A DNA stretch of 64,000 bases, taken from Poseidonia sp. (GTDB lineage Archaea; Thermoplasmatota; Poseidoniia; Poseidoniales; Poseidoniaceae). Position numbers and translations under genes: made by a program. Shown here in pieces: positions 11,330-40,479 of the stretch; positions within the stretch are counted from its first letter, which is position 1; every line of letters starts with the position of its first letter. The stretch spans positions 4,626 to 68,625 of the forward strand of contig JBMSEL010000007.1 in assembly GCA_049412325.1 (NCBI GenBank), in the 5' to 3' direction. Below the pieces are notes generated by a model that saw nothing but the letters and a program-made list of their open reading frames with translations, was not told the DNA's origin and did no database searches.

Positions 11330-13858
11330 ATGACATCACCGTCCATCATCCACGCTTACGATGGCGACATGGTCGGGCCCCTGCTCCTCGCCATCCTCAC
11401 TGCGGCCTTCTTTTGGAGGAACGTGGTTCCACGGCAACTGAAAGGGTTGCAAGTCGCGTTTCCCACCGGGCCTCGAACCTACGAAGTGCACAAGGTTACA
11501 GCCACGTTGGACGACGTGCGCAAATTGTTGGGTCGCCGAGGGACGCGCTTAGGCGTCATCTCCTACTTGATGGCCCTGACCGGGTCGCTGGTGTTGTTGT
11601 TTGAATTCCTCAATTTTCGAGCAGGTAACTCAGCAGGTTACCATGCGCCCTCGGTCATGTTCGCGTTGGTGCTCATCGTCATCCCCGCTATCGTTTCAAG
11701 TGGGACCTCCCTGGGCGCTCAAATCATCAAACCTCACGGCGTGAGCAGGGCGTCCCTCCAAAGCAACTCCACCCTTCGAAACGCCTCCTACTTCGCCCTC
11801 ACCTTGGCGTGGTTATTGCTCGCCATGGGGGTTGGCGTCATGATGATGACACGCAACGTGTCAAGCACCACCCTCTACAGCACCATGGCCCTTGTTGCCT
11901 TCAGTCCAGCCATTCTCGCCTACGGCCGAGTGCTCGGTTCGTCGTGGCACGCCCTGAAACAGTCGTCTGAACAAATTGCCAAGGGACGGGCTTCACCGTT
12001 CCACAACCATCTCCCGAACGCCCGACAGCAATTCATCGCTCAAGTGGTTCACCTCAACTTGGTGGTGATGCCGTTTGTGGCTGCCAACACCGTCCTCTCG
12101 CTGATTCTTTTGGCGTACAATCCGGACATGTTTGTGCATTCAGACCGCGTGCTGAATCTCCCTGAATACCGCCTTCAATCCACCTACATGGAAGAAGGCG
12201 GACTGCTCGGGTTTGGTCTGATTGAGTTGTTCTCTCATATCCCACAAGCAGGCATTCGTGTACCCATCGTCACCACCTTGCTGTTGTTCCTCTTGCTCAA
12301 CGTCGCCGCCATCGGTTTCCTCTTCGTTTACGAAGTGGCTCGCATCTTGTTCCTCGATATCCAGGATGTTTCCGGACGTGGCGGCATCCGACTGGCTGAC
12401 AGTCGGTTGCTCCGTGCCGAGCCCATCCAGCAAGCCCACGTGCTCAACTTCTGCTTCACGGGTTTCGCCGGCCAGTCCATGTTGTTGCTCGCTCTGGCGA
12501 TGATCACCTTCTGGGACTCCAGTTTCCTGCCTCAGGGCGCACAGTGCGGTAAGTGGGAGGCCGATGTCTGTGCGGTCTTGGAAAAAGACATGCTCGAACA
12601 ATTGACGTGGATGCTGGCATCGGCCGGTCAAGTGGCGTTCTTGGTGGTGTGGGGTCTGTCTCGGAGCCGATCCACGCAACTTGACGAAATCACGTTCGAC
12701 GCGTCAATGGATGAAGATCGAACCCGCCTGCGAGGCATGAGCGACATGATTTACCTCAAGCAGCGCCCTACTGCAGAACTGCTTGGCAACGATGATTGGA
12801 ACACCGCCATCGAACGCTACGAGGCTTCAACGCAGGGCCACGAAGCCATGCTGGTGGGGTTGGACATGATCCGCTCCACGCAAGCGAAGATGTTACTTCA
12901 TGTCGGTTTAGGTCGATGGGACGAAGCCGAAGAGATGGCTGTTGACCTTCTCGCCCTTCAAGGAGGGCGGGACGCCCAAACCGCACGGCTCGTGCTGTGC
13001 GCAGCCAGTCTGGCTCAACGAGACTACCAAGAGGCCATCCCCCGATTGGCGCTGCTCAACAACGACGATGTTGAGGCGGTTCGGTTGCGCTGGGTGGCCA
13101 GTCTTCTCACCGGCAAGCAGCACCTTGACCCAGACGGCCAATCCATGCTCAGCGTTGATCCACTTCGTAAAAACAACATTCGCCTGTTGAACGAATTCGA
13201 GCAAGGCGAGACCTCCTTGCGAAACACCCCCGTTCGCCAACCTGCTCAACGCAGCATGTACCTTGCCGAAATCGCCCGCTTGCGCATGATGGGTCGAAGC
13301 GAAGAAGCGCTCAATCACCTTGAGCGAACGATGAGCGCGCTGGATGATTCAGGATGGGTTCAGGGAAGGTTGGTGGAGGCCTTGTTAAATTTTGATGACG
13401 GACGCACGCTGACGGCCATCAACACCGTGAAAGAACTCGCGAAGAACCACCCTCGCCATCCTCACGTCAGGGCCGTACTTCACCAACTTGCGTTGCTCGG
13501 CAAGGCGACGCGCCCTCCTTCCGAACCCACCAACATTCACTGGATGCTCGAGCGGGAAACCGACTGGAGGCAGGCGTGGCCACTGCACAATGTGGCCGTC
13601 GCACCCGTCCTCGACACGCAAGAACTCAAGCAGCACGCCCTCAAGGCCAACGCATGGTCACTTCTCCTCAGTGGCCAAGGCGTAGGGAAACACGCTGGAA
13701 AGAAGGCGTACAAGCGGCTTCCCGATGAAGTGCCAATCGGCTTGTACACCCATCTCGGAGGCCTCACCATCACCATCGCCGGCATGCCGGTCGACCTTGG
13801 CCTCCCATCAGACATTGACATCGGTTCAGCACGGAAGCTCGGGTTGCTTGAGGCCTGA
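11330..13858 (+). CDS. Large polytopic membrane protein (~10 TM) with a C-terminal TPR-like helical domain
   Basis: 842-aa ORF. The N-terminal 450 aa are rich in hydrophobic helices; the C-terminal 390 aa are helical-repeat-like (LALQGGRDAQTARLVLCAASLAQRDYQEA...). No catalytic motif. Confidence 0.5.
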   Translation: MTSPSIIHAYDGDMVGPLLLAILTAAFFWRNVVPRQLKGLQVAFPTGPRTYEVHKVTATLDDVRKLLGRRGTRLGVISYLMALTGSLVLLFEFLNFRAGNSAGYHAPSVMFALVLIVIPAIVSSGTSLGAQIIKPHGVSRASLQSNSTLRNASYFALTLAWLLLAMGVGVMMMTRNVSSTTLYSTMALVAFSPAILAYGRVLGSSWHALKQSSEQIAKGRASPFHNHLPNARQQFIAQVVHLNLVVMPFVAANTVLSLILLAYNPDMFVHSDRVLNLPEYRLQSTYMEEGGLLGFGLIELFSHIPQAGIRVPIVTTLLLFLLLNVAAIGFLFVYEVARILFLDIQDVSGRGGIRLADSRLLRAEPIQQAHVLNFCFTGFAGQSMLLLALAMITFWDSSFLPQGAQCGKWEADVCAVLEKDMLEQLTWMLASAGQVAFLVVWGLSRSRSTQLDEITFDASMDEDRTRLRGMSDMIYLKQRPTAELLGNDDWNTAIERYEASTQGHEAMLVGLDMIRSTQAKMLLHVGLGRWDEAEEMAVDLLALQGGRDAQTARLVLCAASLAQRDYQEAIPRLALLNNDDVEAVRLRWVASLLTGKQHLDPDGQSMLSVDPLRKNNIRLLNEFEQGETSLRNTPVRQPAQRSMYLAEIARLRMMGRSEEALNHLERTMSALDDSGWVQGRLVEALLNFDDGRTLTAINTVKELAKNHPRHPHVRAVLHQLALLGKATRPPSEPTNIHWMLERETDWRQAWPLHNVAVAPVLDTQELKQHALKANAWSLLLSGQGVGKHAGKKAYKRLPDEVPIGLYTHLGGLTITIAGMPVDLGLPSDIDIGSARKLGLLEA

Positions 13859-15616
13859 TCAGATACGACGACGCAAGCGTTCCATCGCCCCGTCAGCGAC
13901 GCCCAAGGCCTCCAATGCTTCCTCGAGGCGTGCCACGGAGAGGTGATCCTCTGCCAAGGCCACCGCCTCTTCAACGGCGCGGCGGTCTTCGTCCGTGGCC
14001 TTGATGTGGGCGGCCTCGCACTGATTGCGAAGCACGGCCCATTGCTGCGCCACGAAGTCGTAGAGTTCCTTTGCTTCCTCGGCGGCATGGCCTTCCCGGT
14101 CCAAAGCCGTGGTCATCTGCTCCAGCAACATCGCAGCATGACTCCAAATTCGGTCGTCAGCAGCGGCGACAATGTCGACCAGCATCGCTTCCCAGCGGTC
14201 CTTGTCATCCCGCCCTTCGTAGCGTTGCTTGAGTTTCTTTTTCTGCTTCAGTGCACGCAACACGTCATCCATCGCCGCCCGCTCACGCTCAAGTGTTCGT
14301 ACCACTCCGTCTGCCAACCCGATGGCTTGACTGGCATTACCACTGGCGAGGGCCTGCGAGGCCTGTTCCAATCGCATTTCCATGTCCGACGTGTCAAGGC
14401 CATCGCTCTGTTCAACACTGCGATGTGCCTCCTCAACCGACCGTTCAGCCCGCTCGATGGCATCGGCATCGGCTTCCAATTGCGGAAGAATCACGATGGC
14501 GATTTCGTAGGCCTCTTTTGGTTGCTCTTTGGCGAGATGCGCCTTCGCCTCTGCCAACATCTCTCGAAGTTGTTTGGCACCCGCGCCGCTCTTGCCGTCC
14601 AACGCCCGTGTGGCTTCCGTGATGGCTTCCTCGGCCTTGGCCCACCACGAAATGGTCTCAGAAGCACGCTTCTTGGCCTGGCGATAGAGTTGCTCACCTT
14701 CCCGAAGCGACCCGAGTTTCACCTCGCGCTCGCCCATCTCGTAGGCTTTCCGAGGGCGTTTCACCGTGGGTGCAATGGCTTCGGCTTGTTCAACCGCTGT
14801 CAAGGCGTCTTGACGGATGATTTCAACATCATCGGCGAAGGAAAGAGCACGTTCCATGTCCTCCTCGCTTTCATCGAGCAGACGCATGCCATAATCAGGG
14901 TCGAGATGACCCTCTTCCTTTGCCGTGGTCAACAAGCTGGCTGCCTGGGCAACAGCGGCCCCTTGGGCCTTGAGTTCCAACAATCGGGTTTCCAGACGAT
15001 CAAGGCGCTGCCTGAATCGCTTTCGTTCAACCTTCTGGTCGTCGCCTACCGTCCAAGTGTAGGTGGTGTCGGCCACCGCCACGGCACATACACCAAGCGC
15101 CAGCAACATCGGCGGCTCGGCGTACGCCTCTCCGGAGGTGAGCGTGAGGGCCAAGGCAGAGAGTGTGCCAATGCCGGTCAGGATGGCTCGATAGCGGAGG
15201 ACGCCGAAATGACCGCGCATTGTGCGATGGGAAAGGTGCCTGCACATCACACCGGAAATGAAGATCAATCCGCTACCGGCCATCGTAGCAACCTCGCCTT
15301 CAAACCCAAGTCCGCCAAGGCACATCAAGAGTGGCCAGGCGACTGAAGTCGCTGAAGCCACTCGGGAACGGGCTGCACCGTCATCGAGGGTCAAGTCCTG
15401 AACGAAAATACCCCAAATGAGCACGAGGAGCGGCGCTCCAAAGCTCGCAAGCACCACGCCGTCCCCGTTGCTCAATCCTCGTATAGAGGGCCAAGCAAGC
15501 CACACGGCACAGAGCAGGAGAGAGAGCGCCGACACCAGGGTGGCATTTTCCACACGCTTGATGCGTAAGGCCCGCTCGGCTTCAACGGCTGCATCTGCAT
15601 CCGCCCACGTGACCAT
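13859..15616 (-). CDS. Membrane-anchored protein with a long cytoplasmic coiled-coil/alpha-helical region
   Basis: N-terminal ~200 aa with 5-6 TM helices, then ~380 aa of E/A/R/L-rich heptad-like sequence. The antisense ORF 13943..15346 has junk composition. Confidence 0.5.
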   Translation of the reverse strand: MVTWADADAAVEAERALRIKRVENATLVSALSLLLCAVWLAWPSIRGLSNGDGVVLASFGAPLLVLIWGIFVQDLTLDDGAARSRVASATSVAWPLLMCLGGLGFEGEVATMAGSGLIFISGVMCRHLSHRTMRGHFGVLRYRAILTGIGTLSALALTLTSGEAYAEPPMLLALGVCAVAVADTTYTWTVGDDQKVERKRFRQRLDRLETRLLELKAQGAAVAQAASLLTTAKEEGHLDPDYGMRLLDESEEDMERALSFADDVEIIRQDALTAVEQAEAIAPTVKRPRKAYEMGEREVKLGSLREGEQLYRQAKKRASETISWWAKAEEAITEATRALDGKSGAGAKQLREMLAEAKAHLAKEQPKEAYEIAIVILPQLEADADAIERAERSVEEAHRSVEQSDGLDTSDMEMRLEQASQALASGNASQAIGLADGVVRTLERERAAMDDVLRALKQKKKLKQRYEGRDDKDRWEAMLVDIVAAADDRIWSHAAMLLEQMTTALDREGHAAEEAKELYDFVAQQWAVLRNQCEAAHIKATDEDRRAVEEAVALAEDHLSVARLEEALEALGVADGAMERLRRRI

Positions 15617-18235: not shown

Positions 18236-18320
18236 ATCCACTGAAAAAAATGTTGAATATTACAGTTGAAGAATTAAATTTGCAATTGAAATATTTTATC
18301 AGACATGGCCGCCCAATCCT
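18236..18320. promoter_or_regulatory. AT-rich island in the 335-nt divergent intergenic region between the tRNA-thiolase gene and the roadblock operon; candidate TATA/BRE elements
   Basis: gaaaaaaatgttgaatattacagttgaagaattaaatttgcaattgaaatattttatc shows a local GC drop against the ~60% GC background. Confidence 0.4.
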
Positions 18321-18505
18321 CTACCGTTCTCGCCGTGTTTGACCAAAATCCCGCGCACTGAAGGCGATTCACGCACATCATGGCAACGACAAAAAATCTG
18401 CATTTCCAGTTGGAAAATGAGAAAGGGTGCCCAAACCTGCAAAATCCGACGCTCAAGCGCAAAACTTCTTGAAGGCTACAGCGGTGTCTGTGGGATTGAG
18501 CACCC

Positions 18506-18847
18506 ATGCTACAGCGCTTGTTGAAGGAATTCTTGAACGTCGGAGGGGTGGAACAGGCCACCGCCATCGACGACCGGGGGCGATTGCTCGCCAGCGTTGG
18601 AACAGAGGGCCAACTCCCTCTCACTCAGCGTGCCGTGGACATCACGGTCGCCGCCCTTGATGTGGCACAAGCCAGCGATTTAGGCGAACTCCAAGAAGTC
18701 TGGATCGAAGGCCAAACCACGACTTGCATCGACATTGTAACTCCCTATCGCATCCTGATGTTGTCAGGAGGCAAGAGCAACATTGCTCGCTGGCGCCACA
18801 GCGTTGACCGATTGCGTCGACAACTGGCCACAACCCATGAATTGTAG
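18506..18847 (+). CDS. Roadblock/LC7 (MglB-like) domain protein
   Basis: 113-aa ORF with a roadblock-like alpha-beta pattern (VEQATAIDDRGRLLASVG...VWIEGQTTTCIDIVTPYRILMLSG). The stop TAG is immediately followed by the GTG start of the next gene. Confidence 0.65.
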   Translation: MLQRLLKEFLNVGGVEQATAIDDRGRLLASVGTEGQLPLTQRAVDITVAALDVAQASDLGELQEVWIEGQTTTCIDIVTPYRILMLSGGKSNIARWRHSVDRLRRQLATTHEL

Positions 18848-21800
18848 GTGAACACCGTGTTTGAACTGCCATTTGGAAAGCCCGTCAATGAATCCATTTC
18901 GCTTGAGGAGGGGGTGCTGCAGCCGTTTGCTCACGGCGTCATCTCAACCTTCGCAGGGCGACGCAAGACCCCGCAAGGGCATCGGCTTGTCCGTGCTGGC
19001 CGGGTCGTCGGTTACCTCTGTGACGCCGACAAAAAAGGCGTGATGCTGGGTGGAGAGGAAGCCAAAACGGCCCTCGAAGCCCTCGAAGCTCAACAGAAGG
19101 TGCGCCACGTCGCCTCATCCTACACCATCGCCCGCCTCGGTGCCCTAGCCGAACTTGTTCCGGAGGCCTTCGTTCACCAAGCCGACCGGCAGGGGCTGAA
19201 ATCGAGCAGCAATGCCGTTGAACGACTGCTTGCACGAGACCTCTCCACCGTGGTCAGAACACTGGCAGACAACATGACGGTACGGGGCGCCATGGCCATC
19301 GACAGCGGCATGCTCATCGACCATGCTGGCGATTTGCCCGGGCTGGGGGAAGAGGAACGCTTGGCCAGTGAACTCCACGAGTTAATGAGCGGCATGGGCC
19401 ATCAGTCCCTGCATGACGGCTGGGGCATGTCCGGTCAAAGCCACTGGACGCTCCATACCGATCGTGGTGCCTTGCTTCTGGCCCAAAGCGGCGAGATTTC
19501 CATTGCGGCATGGACAGAAAAGGACGCCAATCATGCCCGCCTGCTCTCCTCTGCCTCCATTGCGCTTGAAGGCGACCTCGTCGCTGCAGGCGCACACGGT
19601 TCGAAACTGCCCGAAGGATTCACGCTCCGAGAGGGACGTGGTGGACCTGATGCGGTGCTCTCCATGTTGAAAGCCGCCATGCAGGAAGAGGTGACAGGAC
19701 ACCTTCAGTCCGGCTCATCCAGCAAAGCGGTCTCACTCATCCTGTCCCGGGGGGTACCACTCGCCCTTTGGGCACCTTCGATGGACACGGAAGAAGAGGC
19801 CATGCTCGCCCTCACCGAAGCGAAACGCAAAGTGCAACTCATTCGCTTCCCAGCAGGCACCATCGTTTCGTCCAACTCAGGAACCGTGGAAGGGTTCACG
19901 TTGGCTGGTTTCATCGAAACCCTGGCCACCGTCCGTACTCGGTCGGAGGCTCGTCAAGCCTCACTCAAAGCGATGTTGGACGACCTGTTGGGCTTTGAGG
20001 CCAGCTTGGAGGCGCTCCGAGACGCACGTTCCAAACTCAAGTTCAACACCGGCGGTGCCGATGTTGCAGAGGCTTTGCCGGTGATGCGAGATCAAGCCGT
20101 CAGCGCCGTCGATGCAGGGCTGCGCCGCAAGCTCGAAATGGCTGAACAGCGCATTGATACACTCAACAAGGAGAAAGCCGTGTTGTCATCTCAGGTCAAA
20201 GCCCTCGAGAAGAAGAAAGATGCTGCACAAATCGTTGCGCGGGAAGCCACCGAATCACGCCAAGAAAACACCTCAGCGTTGGAAGAGGCGCACGCTCAAT
20301 TGAACACCATGCAAGTTGACCTCGCCCAAGCCCGATCTCAATGGGAAGAAGCCGAGTCCCGTGCAGAACGTCTCGTTCGGCGGGTCAACGAACTGGAGCA
20401 CCAAGTCAGCCAGCGGGCTGCCGAACTTGCGAAAGCGGTCGGTGATGCAGAAAGCAGTGCTGAACTGCAAACGATGCTTGAGGAACTCTCGTTGAAGGAA
20501 GCCGAACTGCAAGCCAACATCGCCGAAGGAAGCGAGCGCCTCAGCACCATTCGAAAGCAAAGCGAAGATGAAGAACGCCGCCTCCGGGTCTTGACCGAAC
20601 AGGTCAACACCAGCCGTGAGCGGCATGCACGCGCACAAGCCGACCTCATCAGCGTCCAAGAGCAAGTCCATGTCAACAACCTCGAGCTTGAAGCGGTTCG
20701 AAGCGAGGAGAAGCACGCACGCCAGCGCACTGAGGAAGACCGCCTTCGACGAGCCGAGGACGAAGCACGGCGAGCAAACATCCAGGCGGAGTTGCGAGAA
20801 CTCATGGACGAACGCCGCCAAGTACTCCGTGAATTGGGCGATCTTGGTGCACGTCGAGGGCACGCTGAAGCCGAATTGTCGACCTTGGTTGACAAAGCCA
20901 CCTCCCTGGCTGAGGCTCACGAAGAAGCCCTCGCTGACATCCAAGAAGCAGAGCGTTTGCGCGCCCGCTTGGCCGAAGAACCGCTTGCACAAGCCCTCTT
21001 GGATGACAACACGACCTTCCAGGGCTTGGGCCCTGTGCTGGAACGGCTCGAACACGCCCGGAGCCTCGGGTACTCGGTCACGATGCTTGACCGGGCGGTT
21101 GAACGAGCATTGCAAGTGATTCAAGGAACGGTCGACCATGTCGCTGCAACGCCACGACACCTGCTCTCCTCCGAGGTCATGACGCTGTTGGAGCGCCAAG
21201 TCCCACAAACAGCAGGAGCCGTCCGAGGATTGGCTCGCTGGTCAGTGCAACAACGATTGGAGCAACAACTCGGCGAAACCGTCAATCATGTCGTCGTGGA
21301 CCTTGAGCACCTGCTCGAAGATTTCGACCGTTCCATCACGATGCTTCGCCGTATCCGAAACGTGCTCGAGCAAGTCGAGCGACTCGGTGCACCGTCCCAT
21401 GAGGTCCACGCTCTGCTGGCCAATTGTCAGCGGCCTGAAGCCCTCCCAACCTTGGCCATGGGCACTCGGAAACTGATTCAGGTTGCGCTTGACGAGATCT
21501 ACCTCGAAGCCGACCAGCGTGATGCTGGCGAAGCCATTGGTTTGGAAGAGACGGCACGCGTCCTTGAGGAACTCATCACTCAACTCGATGCTTCGGGACT
21601 GACGGACGGACGACCCCGCGGCATGATGTGGGACTTCCAACGTGACGGGCTGCTTCCGTTTGAACGCGAATCCATTCCAGCCGAGCAACGCATTCCGGTG
21701 AACGAGGCCATGCTCGACGGCATGGAGCCTCACCTTGTGCAGGCAGAGGCCGTGGAAACCGTCGCTCCGGAGGCGAATGAAACCGTGGACGACGAGGGGT

Positions 21801-22039
21801 GGTCCCCCCTGCCGCCTCCCACCGATGAATCTCCTTCCGTGAACGAGACCGCTCCAGGAAGCGAATCGATCACATCAATGGACTCACTGGAAGACGAACG
21901 GGCCCAACTTGAGGCGGAACTTGCTCGCTTGGACGCTGAGCGCAGTCATCGCATCGCACATACTCCCGCTCCAGCAAGCAACGGTGCCGACACAGCGCTG
22001 GCCGACCTTGAGTCTCGCCTGTCCGACATTGAATTCTGA
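18848..22039 (+). CDS. Large (1063 aa) protein with N-terminal roadblock/LC7-like repeats, a ~600-aa coiled coil and an acidic C-terminus
   Basis: The N-terminal 330 aa contain roadblock-like segments (VRGAMAIDSGMLIDHAGDLPG...LLLAQSGEISIAAW). Residues ~400-1000 are heptad-rich (E/R/A/L/Q). GTG start coupled to the upstream roadblock gene. Confidence 0.6.
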   Translation: MNTVFELPFGKPVNESISLEEGVLQPFAHGVISTFAGRRKTPQGHRLVRAGRVVGYLCDADKKGVMLGGEEAKTALEALEAQQKVRHVASSYTIARLGALAELVPEAFVHQADRQGLKSSSNAVERLLARDLSTVVRTLADNMTVRGAMAIDSGMLIDHAGDLPGLGEEERLASELHELMSGMGHQSLHDGWGMSGQSHWTLHTDRGALLLAQSGEISIAAWTEKDANHARLLSSASIALEGDLVAAGAHGSKLPEGFTLREGRGGPDAVLSMLKAAMQEEVTGHLQSGSSSKAVSLILSRGVPLALWAPSMDTEEEAMLALTEAKRKVQLIRFPAGTIVSSNSGTVEGFTLAGFIETLATVRTRSEARQASLKAMLDDLLGFEASLEALRDARSKLKFNTGGADVAEALPVMRDQAVSAVDAGLRRKLEMAEQRIDTLNKEKAVLSSQVKALEKKKDAAQIVAREATESRQENTSALEEAHAQLNTMQVDLAQARSQWEEAESRAERLVRRVNELEHQVSQRAAELAKAVGDAESSAELQTMLEELSLKEAELQANIAEGSERLSTIRKQSEDEERRLRVLTEQVNTSRERHARAQADLISVQEQVHVNNLELEAVRSEEKHARQRTEEDRLRRAEDEARRANIQAELRELMDERRQVLRELGDLGARRGHAEAELSTLVDKATSLAEAHEEALADIQEAERLRARLAEEPLAQALLDDNTTFQGLGPVLERLEHARSLGYSVTMLDRAVERALQVIQGTVDHVAATPRHLLSSEVMTLLERQVPQTAGAVRGLARWSVQQRLEQQLGETVNHVVVDLEHLLEDFDRSITMLRRIRNVLEQVERLGAPSHEVHALLANCQRPEALPTLAMGTRKLIQVALDEIYLEADQRDAGEAIGLEETARVLEELITQLDASGLTDGRPRGMMWDFQRDGLLPFERESIPAEQRIPVNEAMLDGMEPHLVQAEAVETVAPEANETVDDEGWSPLPPPTDESPSVNETAPGSESITSMDSLEDERAQLEAELARLDAERSHRIAHTPAPASNGADTALADLESRLSDIEF

Positions 22040-22047
22040 AGATCGCC

Positions 22048-22293
22048 ATGACGACCGACGCCACCACACTCATGGCCAGACAAGAGACCATCGGGAAGCC
22101 GTACCCGCTTTGGATGGAACGGTTGCTGCTCTTGGGAGCGGTCACGGTGTTCATCTTCTCCCGGTCAACGGTCGCTGACATCGTGGATCAACCCGTGGTG
22201 AGCGTGTTGTTAACCTACATCGCCTTCCCGCTCGCCTTACTGGCAGGCGTGGAACTCTTGGGCCGGGCAATTCAAGGTTCAATGCGCTCATAA
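22048..22293 (+). CDS. Small (81 aa) two-TM membrane protein, last gene of the roadblock operon
   Basis: Hydrophobic helices LLLLGAVTVFIF and LLTYIAFPLALLAGV. Begins 9 nt after the upstream stop. Confidence 0.45.
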   Translation: MTTDATTLMARQETIGKPYPLWMERLLLLGAVTVFIFSRSTVADIVDQPVVSVLLTYIAFPLALLAGVELLGRAIQGSMRS

Positions 22294-23505
22294 TTGCGTG
22301 AAATCCTTGGTTTCCGGCTCAGGTGGAAGACGGCTTGTTTTGGATTGGATGAACCCAATCACGCGCTGCCACGGTATGAAGAAGCGCAGCACAGCCATGA
22401 TGCTCAGGAACAACAGCGCAGAGATGACCAGGCCGTAGGTCAGCGTCAGTTCAATCGATTCTGAGACTTGCCCAGCCCACTGACTTCCAGTGGTGTCCGA
22501 TACGATGGTCAGCAAGACCTTGTGGAAGCCCAACGCGACCATGGTGGCCAAACCGGTCAACCCCAAGAACAGGAAGGTATGTCGAAGATGGGTGTTGAGG
22601 ACGTTGTCCATCTGGCGGACATATTCGGGGTCGCGCTTGCATGATTCAGGGAGGCGGAAAGCGTACTCAAGGTTGCGAATCACGCCGTAGCTGGCCTCTT
22701 GAAACACCATGATGAGCACGGCGATGAGGATCAGGTTGAATTGTTCCTGTGTCACGAGTTTGAGCCCGAACAAGCCGATGGTAGGGTCGGAGGTTTGACT
22801 CTCCAACGTGGCCAACGCCCCGCCGTAGGAGCCCAACTGAGATTTGATGAGCGGGAAGGTCAAGATGGCGTGAATGCCGAGGAACAGGAGCGTGAAACCG
22901 ATAGCCCATGCGATGGAACGGCGAGACAGGCCCCAAATGCCACGTGTTCCCATGATGACTGGGAGGAGATAGATGAAGAGAATAAGCAAGGACATGATCA
23001 TGAGCAACGGCCACTGAAGGGTTTCCAGCTCGTCGTTGGTCGGGAATCGTAGGTCAAAGGAAAACAACATACCAGCAAACCAAGACAACACCAAACGCCC
23101 GATCAACAACAGAATGAGGCCAACGATGAAACCGAGTTTGATGCGTTGTTGCACCTTGGGGGACTGGAAGGCAATGAACGCCATGACACCACCAAGGCCC
23201 AATCCCAACACGAGCGGTACAAAGAACCGGGCCATACCTGTACGGCCCTCACCGGTCAGCCAGTCGCCGAGTGGGAGTTGGTCTGAAATGAGCAACTCGA
23301 TGGAATCGAACAGGATGGTATGGTCGATGGAACCGACAACATAGGTCGAAACGACCTCGAGGTACATACCGATCAGCGCGATGGTGGCGACCACCTGCAG
23401 CGCAATGATTTGCCATTGACGTCGAAGCGTCTTGAGGTGCAGCGTACGGGGCTTCGCCGCCCCGTCAAGGTAGACGTCCGATTGGAGACCCACTTCGCCT
23501 GCCAT
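22288..23505 (-). CDS. Polytopic membrane protein (~9 TM), terminal gene of the DUF4350/DUF58 operon
   Basis: 405-aa ORF with many hydrophobic helices. Its start overlaps the DUF58 gene stop (ATGA-type coupling). Confidence 0.55.
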   Translation of the reverse strand: MAGEVGLQSDVYLDGAAKPRTLHLKTLRRQWQIIALQVVATIALIGMYLEVVSTYVVGSIDHTILFDSIELLISDQLPLGDWLTGEGRTGMARFFVPLVLGLGLGGVMAFIAFQSPKVQQRIKLGFIVGLILLLIGRLVLSWFAGMLFSFDLRFPTNDELETLQWPLLMIMSLLILFIYLLPVIMGTRGIWGLSRRSIAWAIGFTLLFLGIHAILTFPLIKSQLGSYGGALATLESQTSDPTIGLFGLKLVTQEQFNLILIAVLIMVFQEASYGVIRNLEYAFRLPESCKRDPEYVRQMDNVLNTHLRHTFLFLGLTGLATMVALGFHKVLLTIVSDTTGSQWAGQVSESIELTLTYGLVISALLFLSIMAVLRFFIPWQRVIGFIQSKTSRLPPEPETKDFTQL

Positions 23506-23507
23506 CG

Positions 23508-24761
23508 CTAGTACCCCCTCACCTGCATCAAGGCCTGCGACAAATCCATGTCAGGCATCCAATCAATCACTTGGGCTCCGGAACCGGCGAGCGTGGTCAA
23601 ACGGTTTTGGCGTTCCAGCTTCAGCACTTCATAGGACATGCGAGGGATACGACTCACCAAGCGTTCGAAATCAACACTGGACGGTGAGAGCACGGTGACT
23701 TCGTGGCCGCGACCAACCAGGTCTCGAACAGCGGCCGGCACGGTACCGTCGCCTTCACACGAGGAAATGATGAACACCGGGCTGCCTCGGCTAAATCGTC
23801 CACTCAGCGAGTTGGTGACGGCTTGAAGCGGCATGGCGCCTTTGGGAAGGACGCCCGCAAGGGCACTCAGGATCTTGAAGTACTGCTTGTCCCCGGTGTC
23901 GGGCGGCAAGTAAGCGAGCTTCTCGTCGTAAATGGCCAAGGCCACGGAATCCCGGCGCTTCAAGAAGAACGCTGCGAGACTGGCGGCCGAGACGGTGCCC
24001 ATTTCGAGAGGATTCTTGAGCACGGTACCGATTCGAGCTAAGTCACGGCTATCGAGAATGAGGTAGAGGTCGGTGACGGCGTCTCGACACTTTTCGTTGA
24101 CCATCAACTCCCCGGTTCGAGCGAAGGCTTTCCAGTTGATGTTCTTGAACGGGTCGCCGGGAACGTACTCTCTGAGGGAGTAGAATTCTGAGCCTTGACC
24201 GGGCGTGCGTAGGGTCGTCGCACCGGTGTACATCTTTGGCGTACGGCTGCGCAGGAAGGCTTCCTCAATGTCCTTGATTTGCGGGAAGATGACGATGTCG
24301 CTGTGATGGTCAACGTACATCTCTTCAACACCCAAGTTGAACGTGTTGCGGGCACGCAACGACACCGGACCGATGGAATAGTGGCCTCGAAGTGGGCAGC
24401 GAAGGACGTAGCGAATGCGGGCGCTTTCCCCGGGTTTGAGGTTGAGTTGCATTTGGTTGAGTCCACTGCGCAACTTCATCTCGTGAGGGATGTTATCGTA
24501 GATGTCGAGCATCTGCGTCTTTCGATTGCTGCGGTTGGTCACCAGCAATTCCACGTACAGGTCGTCGCCCTTGTACAAGTTGTCAGCCGAGAGCGTTCGC
24601 TGAACTTCAACATCGCCATGACCGGAAATCCATGAATTCACCACAATGAAGGCGATGAGGCTCAAGCCGAGGATCATCATCTGTTGGTTGGAAATCATCA
24701 TTCCGATGAGCACCAGCGCAATGCCGCCGGTGAAGGTGAAGGCTGCTTTTCTCGTCCACAT
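23508..24761 (-). CDS. DUF58 family protein (vWA-like, usually MoxR-associated), N-terminally membrane-anchored
   Basis: Hallmark block EFYSLREYVPGDPFKNINWKAFARTGELMVNE, two N-terminal TM helices, ~417 aa. Confidence 0.8.
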   Translation of the reverse strand: MWTRKAAFTFTGGIALVLIGMMISNQQMMILGLSLIAFIVVNSWISGHGDVEVQRTLSADNLYKGDDLYVELLVTNRSNRKTQMLDIYDNIPHEMKLRSGLNQMQLNLKPGESARIRYVLRCPLRGHYSIGPVSLRARNTFNLGVEEMYVDHHSDIVIFPQIKDIEEAFLRSRTPKMYTGATTLRTPGQGSEFYSLREYVPGDPFKNINWKAFARTGELMVNEKCRDAVTDLYLILDSRDLARIGTVLKNPLEMGTVSAASLAAFFLKRRDSVALAIYDEKLAYLPPDTGDKQYFKILSALAGVLPKGAMPLQAVTNSLSGRFSRGSPVFIISSCEGDGTVPAAVRDLVGRGHEVTVLSPSSVDFERLVSRIPRMSYEVLKLERQNRLTTLAGSGAQVIDWMPDMDLSQALMQVRGY

Positions 24762-24772
24762 GGCCTTTCACC

Positions 24773-26395
24773 TCACTGGCGCCCCCACGCCTTGATCCGT
24801 TTGACCAGCGCCACCGTTTGCTCAAGCGTGTATTTGTTGCTGGATTCAATGGCAAATTTGGCCAACACGGGGTCGTTGATCATCGAGACCAGTTCGTTGG
24901 CCTGCATCGCCTGGAATTCCTCTCGGTTCAGTCCGTTTTGATTGCGGACCTTGGACAGGAATACCTGTCGGATTTTCTCAACTTTGGAATAATAGGCGTA
25001 GCGATTCGCATCGCCAAAGCCGTAGTAGATGATGCTGAAGACGTGACGCCATGGTTCGGGGTCGCGCTTCTTGATGAGAACCGCCTCGAAGGTGATGAAC
25101 AAAATCAGGAACAACAAGAGCATGGCCAGACCCTCACCGGTGAAGTAGACCAGGAGGAAATAGACGGTGTTGTAGGAATCAGCCGCCAAGGCGCTTTGGG
25201 GATGGCGGCTCTCATCAAAGATGACCATGGCGTTCTCGGCAGGTTCACCCACTTCGTCAACGAGTTCACTCATGAGGGCCTCAGCAATGAAGTCCAACGC
25301 CCACTTGCGGTTGTCGTTCGCGGGCATCAGCGTGTCGGTTGGTCCATATTTTCCTTCGTTGAACCCTTCGTAGTCGTACATGGCGTTGATCAGCGCAGAG
25401 CCGTCGGCCACGAAGACGATGCGCCCCCCGTCCGAAGGGGAGCAACTCGCACGGGCGCAGGCCTCGATGCTGAGGTTGAATTGCCCCCAACGGTCAGGCG
25501 TTTCGGGTGTGATTTCGTTGCCCACCCAAATTTCACCGTCGCCGTTGACGTCGACCGTTGCTTCGTTGCTGGTCAAGGCGCGAACAGCGACCTCACTGAG
25601 CGGCCCACGCACACCGGGGATGACCTCAAGACCGGTGATGTTGTTGAGAAGCAACTGGTAGCTGCCGTTGTAGTCCACGCGGCCGTTGATCATGTGCTGA
25701 GCACACAGCGGTGCTTCGCCCACCACGAAGCTCTGTTCATCGAGTTTCGAACAAGGATGCTCGCCGGGCCCACCAACGTCGGCCCAGCGGTCGTGGGAGG
25801 AAAGGGTTGAGGGGTCCAACTGGGTGCCGTTCATGCCGCATGGGTTGCTTTGCACGCACATCCAGATGTAGTTGAAATCCAATTCCGTGGCGTAGGTTGT
25901 GTCAAACACCTGTTCACCCGTGAAGCGAATACCGAACGCCTCTGCGATGGTGTTCGCATAGCCGTAGTCTTCCATCACCATGGCGGTGCCGCCGGCTTCA
26001 ACAAACTCAACGATGGCGTTGATTTCAGAGGGAGAATAGCCGTTGCCTGAGGCGATGGTGATGAAACCGTCGTCATCAAATTGAGGCAGTGAAAGGGTAT
26101 CTCGCTCAACTCCGGCCAAGATGTAGGTGGTGTTGCGAGGGTCCTCAATGTCCGCCAACAAAAGCGGACTGCTCACCAAGGAGCGGGTTTCGATGCCCAT
26201 GGATTTGATATCGGCACGGAAGGCCGACATGTCGTCCCAATCGTCATCGTAGGCCGATAGCTGGTCGGTAGCACTGAGGTTGATGAAGTTCAACAATATG
26301 GTCATCAGCAAGATGAGCATGACCGCCCAAAACGACGCTTGAAGGGCGAGCCTTCGGGCGTTGATGTTGGCAGGAAGACCGAGCATGCAAATCAC
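24773..26395 (-). CDS. DUF4350-like membrane protein (N- and C-terminal TM segments flanking an extracytoplasmic domain)
   Basis: N-terminal TM (FWAVMLILLMTILLNF), blocks ...AIVEFVEAGGTAMVMEDYGYANT... and ...AENAMVIFDESRHPQ..., a C-terminal TM (VYFLLVYFTGEGLAMLLLFLILFI). First gene of the operon. Confidence 0.55.
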   Translation of the reverse strand: MICMLGLPANINARRLALQASFWAVMLILLMTILLNFINLSATDQLSAYDDDWDDMSAFRADIKSMGIETRSLVSSPLLLADIEDPRNTTYILAGVERDTLSLPQFDDDGFITIASGNGYSPSEINAIVEFVEAGGTAMVMEDYGYANTIAEAFGIRFTGEQVFDTTYATELDFNYIWMCVQSNPCGMNGTQLDPSTLSSHDRWADVGGPGEHPCSKLDEQSFVVGEAPLCAQHMINGRVDYNGSYQLLLNNITGLEVIPGVRGPLSEVAVRALTSNEATVDVNGDGEIWVGNEITPETPDRWGQFNLSIEACARASCSPSDGGRIVFVADGSALINAMYDYEGFNEGKYGPTDTLMPANDNRKWALDFIAEALMSELVDEVGEPAENAMVIFDESRHPQSALAADSYNTVYFLLVYFTGEGLAMLLLFLILFITFEAVLIKKRDPEPWRHVFSIIYYGFGDANRYAYYSKVEKIRQVFLSKVRNQNGLNREEFQAMQANELVSMINDPVLAKFAIESSNKYTLEQTVALVKRIKAWGRQ

Positions 26396-26489: not shown

Positions 26490-26735
26490 TCATACATTGA
26501 GGTGGATGTTTTCGGCTATTCGAGCCACGGCCGTCCCTGGTATGTGAACGGTAGCGCCGGTGTTCTCAAACGGCAACGCAGCGGCGTCCACGGTCGCTTC
26601 AACTTGGACGAGCAGTTCGCTGATCACACCCGTGTTCAAATCAAAACTCAGGTCCACGAGCGATCCCAACACGGCCCCGGTACGGTCCACCACGTTGTTT
26701 CCGATGATTTCACGACCAAAAATCGCCACTTGCAT
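26490..26735 (-). CDS. PRC-barrel domain protein (81 aa)
   Basis: VAIFGREIIGNNVVDRTGAVLGSLVDLSFDLNTGVISELLV matches PRC-barrel topology. Confidence 0.55.
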   Translation of the reverse strand: MQVAIFGREIIGNNVVDRTGAVLGSLVDLSFDLNTGVISELLVQVEATVDAAALPFENTGATVHIPGTAVARIAENIHLNV

Positions 26736-26793: not shown

Positions 26794-29022
26794 TCACATC
26801 GTTTCGATGCCACGACTGAAATCTCGGTTTCGCTTGATGTTGGTCAAGCCCGAGGTCAGGCGGGTTTCCATCTTCTGGTAGTAGTCAAGCATGTCAGGGG
26901 TCACGGTCGGTCGAACACGAGAAATCGCTTCTTCGAAATGCCCCTTGGTGACCTTCTTCTTGCCTGCTCGCATGCAAATCAGCGCTGCTTCACGACACAC
27001 CGCTTCGATGTCGGCACCGGTGAAGCCGTCCATGCCCGTCAAGATGTCCTTGAACGAGAATTTGGACAGCGGCATGCCTTCGCTGTGAATTCGGAAGATG
27101 GATTCACGAGCCCCTGCGTCGGGCGGTGGCACGTGAAGCACACGCTCAAAGCGCCCACTGCGCAACAGAGCAGGGTCGATCATCTCAGGTCGGTTGGTCG
27201 CCGCCACGATGATGACGCCATCAAGGGATTCAACACCGTCCATGCTGGCAAGGAGTTGGTTGACCACGCGGTTGCCAACATCGCTGCCTTCGGAGGCGCT
27301 GCCACCGCTTCGCATCGAAGCAATGGACTCGAATTCATCAAGGAAAATGATGGACGGCGCTGATTGCTTGGCCTTCTTGAAGATCTCGCGAATGGCTCGC
27401 TCGGATTCACCCACCCATTTGGAGATGAGTTCTGGACCCTTGATGCTGATGAAGTTCGCCTGTGCTTCGTTGGCGATGGCCTTGGCCAGCAGCGTCTTGC
27501 CGGTCCCGGGAGCGCCGAACAGAACGATGCCTCGAGGCGGCTTGATGCCGAAGTGCTCAAACAACTCAGGTTTGGTCAACGGCCATTCCACCGATTCCTT
27601 CAGACGGTCCTTGACCTCCAACAGACCACCGACGGCGTCCCAGCCGACTTCGGGGACTTCAACGTAAATCTCACGAAGCGCAGACGGTTCAATGTCTCGG
27701 ATGGCTTCCTTGAAGTCGTCCATGCAGACCTCCATCTTCTCGAGCACCTCGGGTGGAAGCGTCTCTTCATCAAGGTCGATTTCAGGGAGGTAGCGACGTA
27801 GCGCACGCATGGCCGCCTCACGAACAAGGGCCGCAAGGTCAGCACCGACAAACCCGTAGGTGTTGTCGAGGACCCATCCAACATCAAAGTCATCGGCGAT
27901 GGGCATCTGACGGGTATGAACGTCCATGATTTCGCTTCGACCATCTCGGTCGGGCACGCCAATCTCAATTTCTCTGTCAAAGCGGCCCGGGCGTCGCAGG
28001 GCTGGGTCGAGTGCATCGCGTCGGTTGGTGGCGCCGATGACCACCACGTTGTCACGGCCCTGCATGCCGTCCATCAGGGTCAGCATCTGAGCGACCACAC
28101 GTCGCTCAACCTCACCGGTGACGTCTTCACGCTTGGGGCAAATGGAATCAATTTCGTCAATGAACACGATGGCTGGGGCGTTGTCGGCGGCCTCATCAAA
28201 AATTTCACGGAGTTGTTTTTCGGATTCTCCGTAATACTTTGAGATGATTTCTGGGCCGTTGATGCTCTTGAAGTGGGCGTTGACCTCGGTGGCCACCGCC
28301 TTGGCGATCATCGTCTTCCCTGTGCCGGGTGGCCCGTGGAGCAGGACACCCTTGGGCGGGTCGATGCCGAGGCGACGGAAGAGTTCGGGATGCTTGAGCG
28401 GCAGCTCGATCATCTCACGCACCTTCAGAAGTTGCTGACCTATCCCACCGACGTCTTCGTAGGTGATGCCTTCGGATTGCCCGACGTCTTCCTCGGCAAC
28501 CGCTTCGTCTTTGATGACGATCTCGGTGTCGGTTGTGACGACCACGATGCCCTTGGGCACGGTTTGGACGACAGCGAACGGCAAGGCCTCAGCAAAGAGG
28601 GTCATACCGGGGATGAATATGCGGTCGCCGGCCACGACCGGTCTTTTCGCAAGGCCTCGCTTGGCAAAGCCTTCAATGCCGGGGCCGAACTTGACCTTCT
28701 GCTTGTTGGCCATCACCGGTGAAATCGTGAGTTTGGTGCAGGTCTTGGCCTCCACCTTGCGAACCGTGACACGATCACCCAGGCTGACACCAGCGTTCTT
28801 GCGGATGATGCCGTCCATTCGAATGATGTCCATCTTGGCATCCTCGGGGCGGCTGCGCCAGTAAATGGCGGCCGTAGAACGCTCATCACCGCTGATTTCA
28901 ACGAAGTCACCGGGTTTGAGGTCCAACCCCATTTCCGAGGAGATGCGTGCCCTACCGAACCCGACGTCGGAGGGGATGGCTTTCGATACGCGCAATTCAG
29001 TGGTGTCATTCTTGTCTGCCAT
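26794..29022 (-). CDS. cdc48: CDC48/VCP-like AAA+ ATPase (N domain plus D1 and D2)
   Basis: N-terminal double-psi/beta-clam region, two Walker A motifs (GPPGTGKT and GAPGTGKT), Walker B DEID/DEFE, 742 aa. Confidence 0.95.
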
Positions 29023-39285: not shown

Positions 39286-40479
39286 ATGTTCACAGGCACC
39301 GTAGAAGCGAAAAGCCACGAAGGTGGCCTACTGGTGCACTTTGACGGTTCATCGCCAGCCTTGAACGCCATCATGGTCCGAGCCGACGACGGCGCCTACA
39401 TCGGCAAAGTGGACGGAGTCATCGGTAGCACCGACCGACCGCTCGCTCACGTAGCCCACATCGACCGCTCGCTCGACATGGACAGCTTGATTGGAATCTC
39501 GGTCTCCGTTCGCGCCAAGAAAAAGCCGACTGAGCAGCGTCAGGACCGCCGGCAAGGCGAGCGAAGAGAAGGGAACACGCGCCACTGGGACCGACGAGGT
39601 GACGACCGTCGCCAAGATGGACGAAACAACCGTGGGTACCGAAATGACAGAGGTGGCGACCGACGCTCCAACGACCGCCAAGGCGGCCGAGACCATCGAG
39701 GCTCCCGAGATGGAGGTCAAGACCAGCGAACCTACGACGATTGGACCTGTCCAAAATGCAACAACTCCAACTTTGCCCGCCGCACGGTCTGCAACCGATG
39801 CGAAGAGCCCCGACCCGGTGGTGGCGGCCAGCGTAACGACCGTGGCGGTGATCGACACTTCAACAACCGGCAAGGCGGACGGGATAACCGTGGATTCAGA
39901 AACGACCGTGGCGGAGATAACCGTGGATTCAGAAACGACCGTGGCGGGGATAACCGTGGATTCAGAAACGACCGTGGGCGTCGAGACCAGGGCCGACCCC
40001 AACGGAACACCTTCAACGATAACGATTGGACCTGTCCGCAATGTAACAACTCCAACTTCTCGTTCCGAAACGCCTGCAACCGATGCGAGGCACCTCGACC
40101 AGGTGGCGGCGGTGGCGGTGGTCAACGAGGCGGAGGCCGCCCTTCCTATGGTGGCCAACGCAACGACCGGCGTCAAAGTGGCGGGTACCGAAACGATCGT
40201 GGTGACCGAGGTGGAGACCGACGCTCATCTTACGGCGGACAGCGCAACGAAGGGGGCCGAGGCTTCCGGGACGGTGGGCGACGAGACGGTGGCGGCCGCG
40301 GACAAGGTCGCTGGCAAGGCGGCCGTGACGACCGCCCACGTGGTGGAGGTGGCCCTCAACGTCGTGGCCCCTCTGATGGAAGCTTTCGAAGAGCCAAAGG
40401 CAAGCGCTCCGGCCATGCCCATAACCGTCCACCTCAAGATTTCAGAGCGCCCCGTTCATTTGAACGAAAAGAAGACTGA
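39286..40479 (+). CDS. Gar1-like (H/ACA RNP) domain protein fused to two RanBP2-type zinc fingers and an extended RGG/Gly-Arg-rich (GAR) region
   Basis: N-terminal 80 aa match the Gar1 barrel pattern (GTVEAKSHEGGLLVHF...YIGKVDGVIGSTDRPLAHV). Two W-C-x2-C-x3-N-x6-C-x2-C fingers (WTCPKCNNSNFARRTVCNRC and WTCPQCNNSNFSFRNACNRC). There are more than 25 R-G-G/N-D-R-G-G repeats. Confidence 0.6.
   Translation: MFTGTVEAKSHEGGLLVHFDGSSPALNAIMVRADDGAYIGKVDGVIGSTDRPLAHVAHIDRSLDMDSLIGISVSVRAKKKPTEQRQDRRQGERREGNTRHWDRRGDDRRQDGRNNRGYRNDRGGDRRSNDRQGGRDHRGSRDGGQDQRTYDDWTCPKCNNSNFARRTVCNRCEEPRPGGGGQRNDRGGDRHFNNRQGGRDNRGFRNDRGGDNRGFRNDRGGDNRGFRNDRGRRDQGRPQRNTFNDNDWTCPQCNNSNFSFRNACNRCEAPRPGGGGGGGQRGGGRPSYGGQRNDRRQSGGYRNDRGDRGGDRRSSYGGQRNEGGRGFRDGGRRDGGGRGQGRWQGGRDDRPRGGGGPQRRGPSDGSFRRAKGKRSGHAHNRPPQDFRAPRSFERKED
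39883..39981 (+). repeat. Three tandem 33-bp direct repeats (gataaccgtggattcagaaacgaccgtggcggr) encoding DNRGFRNDRGG x3 inside the Gar1-RGG gene, within a wider degenerate RGG-repeat array (~39560-40330)
   Basis: Visible near-perfect periodicity in the sequence. Confidence 0.8.

Follow-up and report, generated by a model that had tools for sequence, protein, structure and literature searches.

What does a roadblock protein do when no small GTPase is encoded beside it? The question is raised by a locus of three genes in a stretch of 64,000 nucleotides from Poseidonia sp. (contig JBMSEL010000007.1; the whole stretch is referred to as the window, G+C ~58%). The locus encodes a small roadblock/LC7 protein, a long coiled-coil protein with a second, embedded roadblock domain, and a small protein with two putative transmembrane (TM) segments. 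A fold best known for regulating GTPases and for building eukaryotic scaffolds (MglB, Ragulator, dynein LC7) thereby occurs together with a rod, a candidate new domain and a possible membrane anchor. The host order, Poseidoniales (Marine Group II, MGII), is among the most abundant archaea of the surface ocean, is uncultured, and its cell biology is essentially unknown. We suggest, tentatively and with slightly less than even confidence, that the operon encodes a membrane-associated scaffold complex. An earlier interpretation of the same DNA, made from the letters and their translations and called here the sequence-only reading, is taken up where our results bear on it.

The three open reading frames (ORFs) are real genes far beyond chance, as shown by their homologues and their synteny across the order. 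When one genome per GTDB species was scanned, at least 240 species had relatives of the large protein. The roadblock gene (112–119 aa) ends between −8 and +11 nt from the start of the large gene in 78 of 80 species-representative loci; one of the remaining two loci ends at a contig edge, and the other was missed by the script. The pair is retained in two divergent loci, L085 (33% N-terminal identity) and L086 (27%). In nearly all Poseidoniaceae loci, the two-TM gene follows the large gene at −11 to +34 nt. The tight coupling noticed in the sequence-only reading is thus borne out, and the three genes most likely form a vertically inherited, Poseidoniales-specific operon.

The start of the large gene, in contrast, has to be moved from where that reading had placed it, at a GTG directly after the stop codon of gene 1. 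All 120 listed homologues begin with MFELP, which aligns with the second in-frame GTG of the window at 18857; the homologues with this start are 1055–1062 aa long. In relatives this position is an ATG, and a conserved TAGGTGAAC lies just before it. The true start of gene 2 is therefore most likely the GTG at 18857, giving a product of 1060 aa and a spacer of 9 nt after the stop of gene 1. A Shine–Dalgarno (SD)-like GGTGA precedes this start and is presumably complementary to the 3′ tail of the 16S rRNA. The string TAGGTGA is kept in the Poseidonia-like clade, and other clades have a spacer of 4–11 nt or an overlap of 8 nt.

Gene 1 matches the Pfam family Robl_LC7 (PF03259) with E 8.9e-5 and 22.6 bits, 0.4 bits below the curated cut-off of 23. 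Among diverse orthologues, 19 of 23 match Robl_LC7 (best E 7.7e-6), and six orthologues carry a precomputed PF03259 annotation. Searching the PDB with the profile of the gene 1 family returns the Asgard roadblock 9jue_D over residues 5–110, the full length (E 1.4e-4), followed by 7f8m (E 2.7e-3) and MglB (E 0.11). By these matches, the gene 1 product is a canonical stand-alone roadblock/LC7 protein, as the sequence-only reading had it, and we take it to belong to the full type, which has a C-terminal helix. The full-length profile alignment to 9jue_D suggests an alpha-beta-beta-alpha-beta-beta-beta(-alpha) fold.

The N-terminal 400 residues of the large protein were modelled with AlphaFold2 (AF2) from an alignment of 16 sequences, with a mean predicted local distance difference test score (pLDDT) of 72.5. 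The model contains three alpha/beta domains, d1 to d3, separated by linkers of low confidence. The secondary structure of d2 (helix 120–137, strands 142–149 and 152–158, helix 166–179, strands 195–200, 205–211 and 214–220, helix 226–238) follows the roadblock order. The 50 best Foldseek matches of the N-terminal model in the PDB are all of roadblock type, comprising Asgard Robl, CvnB, LAMTOR2-5, MglB and EGO proteins; they have E 1.5e-5 to 6e-4 and span ~110–124 aligned columns, corresponding to one domain. The d2 profile matches CvnB5 (3leq, E 3.9e-5) and 7f8m (E 0.009) in the PDB. Robl_LC7 is found at residues 132–215 of the relative P0125 (E 6e-4) and in 4 of 12 diverse members of the large-protein family, and the large protein of the window itself has no Robl_LC7 match in Pfam at E up to 1. 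From the model and the profiles, d2 is assigned as a roadblock/LC7 domain. A close paralogy of d2 and the small protein was considered and rejected: hhalign gives an insignificant comparison of the two (P 0.011–0.16), so they share a fold family without being recent duplicates.

The two flanking domains are different. In d1, strands 26–33, 41–46, 49–56 and 62–65 are followed by helix 66–79, strand 82–88 and helix 91–98 (pLDDT ~80–87). In d3, the order is strand-helix-strand-strand-strand-helix-strand...helix (pLDDT 81–89). Both orders differ from that of the roadblock fold. Neither domain has a consistent Pfam match at E up to 10 or any match in the PDB profile searches, and hhalign finds no significant similarity of d1 or d3 to each other, to d2 or to the small protein. 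Three assignments were dropped. As mutual repeats, d1 and d3 reach only P 0.12–0.13 over 53–54 columns, which is insignificant. A DUF4388/PATAN identity, suggested by the sequence pattern, gave no Pfam match at E up to 10 in 20 members. The VMAP-C (vWA-MoxR associated) domain appeared at d3 in 5 of 20 members, all close relatives (best E 0.054), and was absent from a re-scan of ten more divergent members; we regard it as noise. Of the multi-roadblock N-terminus proposed in the sequence-only reading, one roadblock domain therefore stands, that of d2, while d1 and d3 carry no such signal.

Behind these domains, the protein continues as a rod. Its 300 residues (409–708) contain no proline and six glycines, are rich in E, R, A, Q and L, and score above the 99th percentile of shuffled sequences for heptads in several windows. 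Residues 636–707 form one helix in AF2 with a pLDDT of 92–95. The only weak PADLOC and Pfam matches of the rod are to other coiled coils (JetC, LmuB and KIF21A). The coiled coil thus covers ~300 residues instead of the ~600 estimated in the sequence-only reading, and the rest is a distinct, conserved helical domain. Conservation within the protein peaks in this domain of ~240 residues: an alignment that includes members down to 33% identity has its densest set of invariant columns there. Conserved motifs include EEPLAQALL, LLDRAVERGL, VRGLTRWSVQQRL, RPEALP and LWxFQxxGxLP. The domain is punctuated by prolines, and AF2 predicts an all-helical bundle with a pLDDT of 80–92. Foldseek against the PDB finds nothing better than E 0.3, and a profile search against PDB sequences finds nothing. 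We consider the domain a candidate new protein family.

The last 115 residues form the acidic tail that had also been read from the sequence; they have a net charge of −22 and no lysine. The pLDDT lies below 50 except in two helices (373–399 and 408–421 of the model). Two amphipathic helix motifs (Table 1) are conserved, both among 36 distinct tails and in the alignment of divergent members. The C-terminal one was compared with the MIM1-like helix of ESCRT-III and rejected, as the required arginine is not kept and position −7 is R, D, E or K.

Gene 3 has two hydrophobic 19-mers, starting at residues 27 and 48, and is a conserved third member of the operon, so that its description as a two-TM protein holds. 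The consensus of 70 distinct sequences contains TLxGRxExxGxxYPxxxER in the N-terminal part and ExxGRxxQ in the C-terminal part. No match to Pfam or PADLOC was found. At L085, the large gene is followed by an 85-aa gene, close to gene 3 in size.

How widely does this architecture occur? Searching a collection of 5.8 billion proteins with the large protein gave 466 significant relatives. The 120 of these that are listed share 71–94% identity and are 989–1066 aa long, nearly all 1046–1066. Where they carry a descriptive source name, it is ‘hypothetical protein’ from metagenome-assembled genomes of Poseidoniales, Poseidonia or Thermoplasmatota. Among all the family members examined that have such a name, the sole exception is one automatic COG-style label from the Joint Genome Institute (JGI), ‘predicted regulator of Ras-like GTPase’. 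Of the at least 240 species loci, nearly all of the best 80 bear the title Poseidoniales, Poseidoniaceae or just a higher archaeal rank, and the original MG-II genome (CM001443) is among the genomes with a relative of the large gene. The N-terminal 400 residues were also compared exhaustively, by phmmer, with 1.84 billion cluster representatives, and only 65 of these matched. These are fragments or full-length proteins of 1020–1089 aa, in which the matched region is N-terminal, and they share one common architecture. The most distant clusters carry the names Thalassarchaeaceae (MGIIb) or Poseidoniaceae, and cluster members of the distant subfamilies P0129 and P0130 are named Thalassarchaeaceae; the family thus occurs in both families of the order, MGIIa and MGIIb. 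Because all 65 matches have one layout and the distant clusters belong to these two families, the large-protein family appears narrow, order-wide and fixed in architecture. No paralogues were found in the window, and our literature search found no published description of the family. We also notice that locus L014 (NZEQ01000033.1), one of the best 80, which holds an 83%-identical copy of the large gene, was deposited as ‘Verrucomicrobiales bacterium’; the public record is probably wrong here, through an error of binning or taxonomy.

How might such a complex work? Roadblock proteins are obligate dimers on which helices of a partner dock, as the dynein intermediate chain (IC) does on LC7 and LAMTOR1 on LAMTOR2-5 (PMC10933270). 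Since all characterised roadblock domains act as homo- or heterodimers, the small roadblock protein would probably pair with d2, and the pseudo-dimer would serve as a platform on the N-terminal side of the rod. If it is one continuous helix, the coiled coil would be ~40 nm long. At the membrane, the two-TM protein may provide the anchor for the complex through its conserved cytoplasmic N-terminal peptide, and the conserved C-terminal bundle together with the terminal helices may either recruit a partner, as an effector end, or fold back onto the platform. The fixed and narrow architecture, the tight linkage across the order and the lack of a P-loop in the large protein are consistent with such a membrane-associated scaffold. 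Several points weigh against it. The hhalign comparison of the small protein with d2 is insignificant (P 0.011–0.16), so that the pairing is argued from the general behaviour of the fold and from gene linkage, and the small protein could equally homodimerise and bind elsewhere. The glycines at 529, 558 and 661–668 may interrupt the rod. The most conserved domain, the bundle, has no structural relative in the PDB (E <0.3) or sequence relative that points to a function. In L086, the position of the two-TM gene is held by an FG-GAP protein, and membrane anchoring is perhaps not universal.

The roadblock pair might instead act like MglB, Ragulator or CvnB, in the role of GTPase-activating protein (GAP), guanine nucleotide exchange factor (GEF) or docking site for a Ras-, MglA- or Rag-like GTPase encoded elsewhere, with the coiled coil and the TM protein placing the switch at the membrane. 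Both roadblock modules are indeed nearest to the GTPase-linked branch (CvnB5 E 3.9e-5, Asgard E 1.4e-4, MglB E 0.11), the structural matches include LAMTOR and MglB in complex with MglA, one member bears the JGI label ‘predicted regulator of Ras-like GTPase’, and a part in regulating NTPases is generally ascribed to the superfamily (PMC4316618). The genome context points the other way. The window contains no Ras, MglA or Arf match in Pfam and no small GTPase; a P-loop search of all its ORFs finds Walker A motifs in real genes only in an ABC ATPase and CDC48; and no GTPase is encoded within ±10 kb of the locus in four other genomes, distant members included. The statement of the sequence-only reading that no cognate small GTPase lies nearby is therefore upheld in the window and in these four genomes. 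An MglB homologue is defined as coupled when a gene for an MglA-family GTPase lies within four genes (PMC4316618), and none does so in the window or in L001–L004, L085 and L086. In the terms of Wuichet and Sogaard-Andersen, the small roadblock proteins are ‘orphan’ MglB homologues. Such orphans without an adjacent GTPase are common, making up 328 of 749 prokaryotic MglB homologues, and none had been characterised as of 2014 (PMC4316618). Because no linked GTPase appears anywhere in the order-wide synteny, we lean slightly towards a structural or adaptor role over GTPase regulation, and we place the GTPase platform on the unlikely side.

A further rival is a chromosome-organising ATPase of the SMC/Rad50 type or a defence protein of the JetC/LmuB type. 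Weak PADLOC matches to JetC and LmuB (best E 2.9e-6) and a coiled-coil-like composition speak for this, and the matches are confined to residues 352–776 and to the coiled-coil arms of the models. The Walker A pattern [AG]xxxxGK[ST] is absent from the whole large protein, Pfam scans of this protein and 11 relatives bring up no SMC_N, Rad50 or AAA match even at E up to 1, and the two ends consist of an alpha/beta domain and a helical bundle, the N-terminal part including the roadblock fold. The gene is also a syntenic core gene and does not sit in a variable island. As stated, this idea is refuted, and we give it next to no weight. An S-layer or otherwise secreted protein was likewise rejected: judged without a dedicated signal-peptide predictor, the N-terminus MFELPFGKPVNESISLEEG lacks a hydrophobic segment, and the large protein combines an acidic composition with a coiled coil and a roadblock fold of cytoplasmic type. 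The sequence-only reading had named an SMC/Rad50 or S-layer identity, or a missing roadblock fold, as outcomes that would overturn it; the former are excluded by the lack of a Walker A motif, a Pfam head domain and an N-terminal hydrophobic segment, and the roadblock fold is present in the AF2/Foldseek results of the large protein and in the profile of the small one. An adaptor in cell division or cell shape, tethered to the membrane like EzrA, DivIVA or SepF and using the roadblocks as dimerisation modules, overlaps with the membrane-associated scaffold. It would suit a core, single-locus, order-wide gene set in MGIIa and MGIIb and the combination of a long rod with a membrane partner. Moreover, a PRC-barrel gene and CDC48 lie ~4.5 kb downstream in conserved synteny, and PRC-barrel proteins are among the components of archaeal FtsZ-based division (PMC11188069). 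However, these two genes are on the other strand with three unrelated genes between, so the link is one of synteny only; no similarity to known division proteins is found with Pfam, PDB profiles or Foldseek; and in uncultured organisms a placement at the division site is hypothetical. We judge a division adaptor to be unlikely.

A bolder version of the membrane-associated scaffold, which we regard as speculative and rather doubtful, is an unrecognised archaeal membrane-tethering or cytoskeletal system built from a roadblock heterodimer platform, a rod, a two-TM anchor and a helical effector domain. It would be a prokaryotic counterpart of the Ragulator and dynein LC7-IC scaffolds or of coiled-coil tethers, universal in the most abundant archaea of the surface ocean, and may operate with a GTPase encoded elsewhere. 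If the complex is a membrane scaffold or polarity device, Asgard archaea and eukaryotes would not be alone in having roadblock platforms fused to coiled-coil tethers, and one concrete function would be at hand for prokaryotic ‘orphan’ roadblock proteins (PMC4316618).

The operon is preceded by an intergenic region of 335 nt with non-coding motifs that are conserved across 31 species. The conserved positions of the block next to gene 1 (Table 1) do not follow a 3-nt period. No conserved structure emerges from RNAalifold (−0.78 kcal/mol, no compensatory pairs) and Rfam has no match, and a structured 5′ leader RNA or riboswitch was therefore rejected. On the same grounds the block is probably an operator, promoter or leader motif acting at the DNA level, and it may be part of the operon's control. 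A motif of the type CA(A/G)TTG(G/A)AA occurs in three copies, at 18264, 18283 and 18407. The first two lie in an AT-rich stretch (~18255–18300) of the divergent intergenic region that separates the roadblock gene from the ttuA-like gene; they are conserved across species and resemble CAGTTGGAA at 18407. This arrangement suggests a repeated transcription-factor site and a bidirectional promoter. The coordinates of all features are collected in Table 1.

Table 1. Features of the operon and its upstream block, in positions of the window (amino acid numbers refer to the 1060-aa product of gene 2).
Feature	Position	Strand	Basis or remark
Conserved block, probable leader/operator	18402..18505	+	31-species alignment; 34 invariant columns, positions between vary
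Block motif CAGTTGG	18407-18413	+	invariant
Block motif GCGCAAAACTTCTTGAAGGCTACAGCGGTG (30 nt)	18457-18486	+	near-invariant
Block motif TTGAG	18496-18500	+	before ATG
ORFs as listed mechanically	18506-18847; 18848-22039; 22048-22293	+	113 aa; 1063 aa from first GTG; 81 aa
Gene 1, stand-alone roadblock/LC7 protein (predicted), 113 aa	18506..18847	+	Pfam, family profile vs PDB
SD-like GGTGA	18847..18851	+	overlaps TAG stop of gene 1, 5 nt upstream of gene 2 start
Gene 2, multidomain protein, 1060 aa	18857..22039	+	start (most likely) corrected from mechanical 18848
d1, alpha/beta domain of unassigned fold, aa 1-105	18857..19171	+	AF2
d2, embedded roadblock/LC7 domain (predicted), aa 115-240	19199..19576	+	AF2, Foldseek, profile
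d3, second alpha/beta domain of unassigned fold, aa 245-360	19589..19936	+	AF2
Coiled-coil rod, aa 409-708	20081..20980	+	composition, heptads, AF2
C-terminal helical bundle, aa 709-945 (~240 residues)	20981..21691	+	alignment, AF2
Acidic, largely disordered tail, aa 946-1060	21692..22036	+	charge, pLDDT, motif conservation
Tail amphipathic helix DERAxLExELARLD, aa 1013-1026	21893-21934	+	conserved
C-terminal amphipathic helix LxxLExxLS[DN][LIV][ED][FIL]-COOH, aa 1045-1060	21989-22036	+	conserved
Gene 3, two TM segments (predicted), 81 aa	22048..22293	+	hydrophobicity, conservation

The neighbourhood of the operon is conserved from Poseidoniaceae to the most distant members. Upstream lie the genes for threonyl-tRNA synthetase (ThrRS) and two uncharacterised large proteins, then pyrB, pyrI and the gene for a TtuA-like PP-loop enzyme. 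The downstream genes are on the opposite strand and encode a membrane protein of 405 aa, DUF58 and DUF4350 proteins, a PRC-barrel protein and CDC48. The end of the 405-aa gene overlaps the end of the two-TM gene convergently by 6 nt. This multi-TM protein, DUF58 and DUF4350 form a cluster (22288–26395, − strand) without an adjacent MoxR ATPase, which is syntenic in all related loci examined. The PRC-barrel protein (26490–26735, − strand, 81 aa) directly adjoins CDC48 (26794–29022, − strand), and this adjacency is kept in L001–L004 and L086. On the other flank, an uncharacterised 842-aa protein (11330–13858, + strand) with a weak TPR match is conserved in synteny, as is an uncharacterised 585-aa protein (13859–15616, − strand), in which an N-terminal hydrophobic region is followed by a helical part rich in E, A and R; the two have no informative match in Pfam or PADLOC. 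Farther away, a 397-aa protein (39286–40479, + strand) has two matches to the RanBP2-type zinc finger (PF00641, E 5e-18), which is best known from eukaryotes. A giant ORF of 2227 aa (41912–48595, − strand), whose sole Pfam match is an FG-GAP-like repeat near the N-terminus, probably encodes a large surface or adhesion protein.

Comparison with known systems places these proteins among several roadblock-containing assemblies. MglB and MglC of Myxococcus and Thermus have the same fold (Foldseek 6hjm, 6izw, 6h5b and 3t1r, E ~3e-4) and form roadblock dimers, and at the membrane or cell pole MglB has coiled-coil or adaptor proteins as partners. In contrast to the present operon, MglB is a stand-alone homodimer usually encoded beside mglA; here there is no adjacent GTPase, and one of the two roadblock modules sits inside a 1060-aa coiled-coil protein. 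CvnB of the Streptomyces conservon is the best sequence match of d2 (3leq), with 3kye among the top Foldseek matches, and the conservon likewise forms a membrane-associated complex. It needs, however, the sensor-kinase-like CvnA, CvnC (DUF742) and the GTPase CvnD, none of which is encoded within ±10 kb. Of the set cvnA-D, only the roadblock component is present, and the neighbours are pyrB, pyrI, the ttuA-like gene, DUF58 and DUF4350.

The Asgard roadblocks (Thor-RB 7f8m; MK-D1 RB 7yh1 and 9jue), which are of the full roadblock (RB) type with a C-terminal helix, are the top Foldseek matches of the N-terminal model (E 1.5e-5 to 2.5e-5), and 9jue_D is the best sequence match of the small protein. 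They are stand-alone homodimers in GTPase-rich genomes, whereas the present proteins come from Thermoplasmatota and combine a rod fusion with coupling to a TM protein. AglZ and FrzS of Myxococcus offer a similar layout: their long coiled coil comes after a small regulatory domain of alpha/beta type, and they work with a GTPase polarity module. Their regulatory domains are receiver and not roadblock domains, and they have neither a conserved C-terminal helical bundle nor a TM partner. Ragulator and dynein LC7-IC share the principle of a roadblock homo- or heterodimer platform that is tethered to a membrane or motor and receives the helices of an extended partner (PMC10933270), and LAMTOR2/3/4/5 are among the structural matches. 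These systems are eukaryotic and related by fold only, and the anchor of Ragulator is the lipidated LAMTOR1 instead of a two-TM protein; we take the likeness as an analogy.

Judged by sequence, the roadblock parts are ordinary members of the fold family, closest to CvnB, MglB and the Asgard roadblocks. What is new, having no curated family, solved structure or paper that we could find, is the setting: a roadblock domain between two domains of unassigned fold and its fusion to a rod, and likewise the conserved helical domain of 240 residues and the dedicated two-TM partner.

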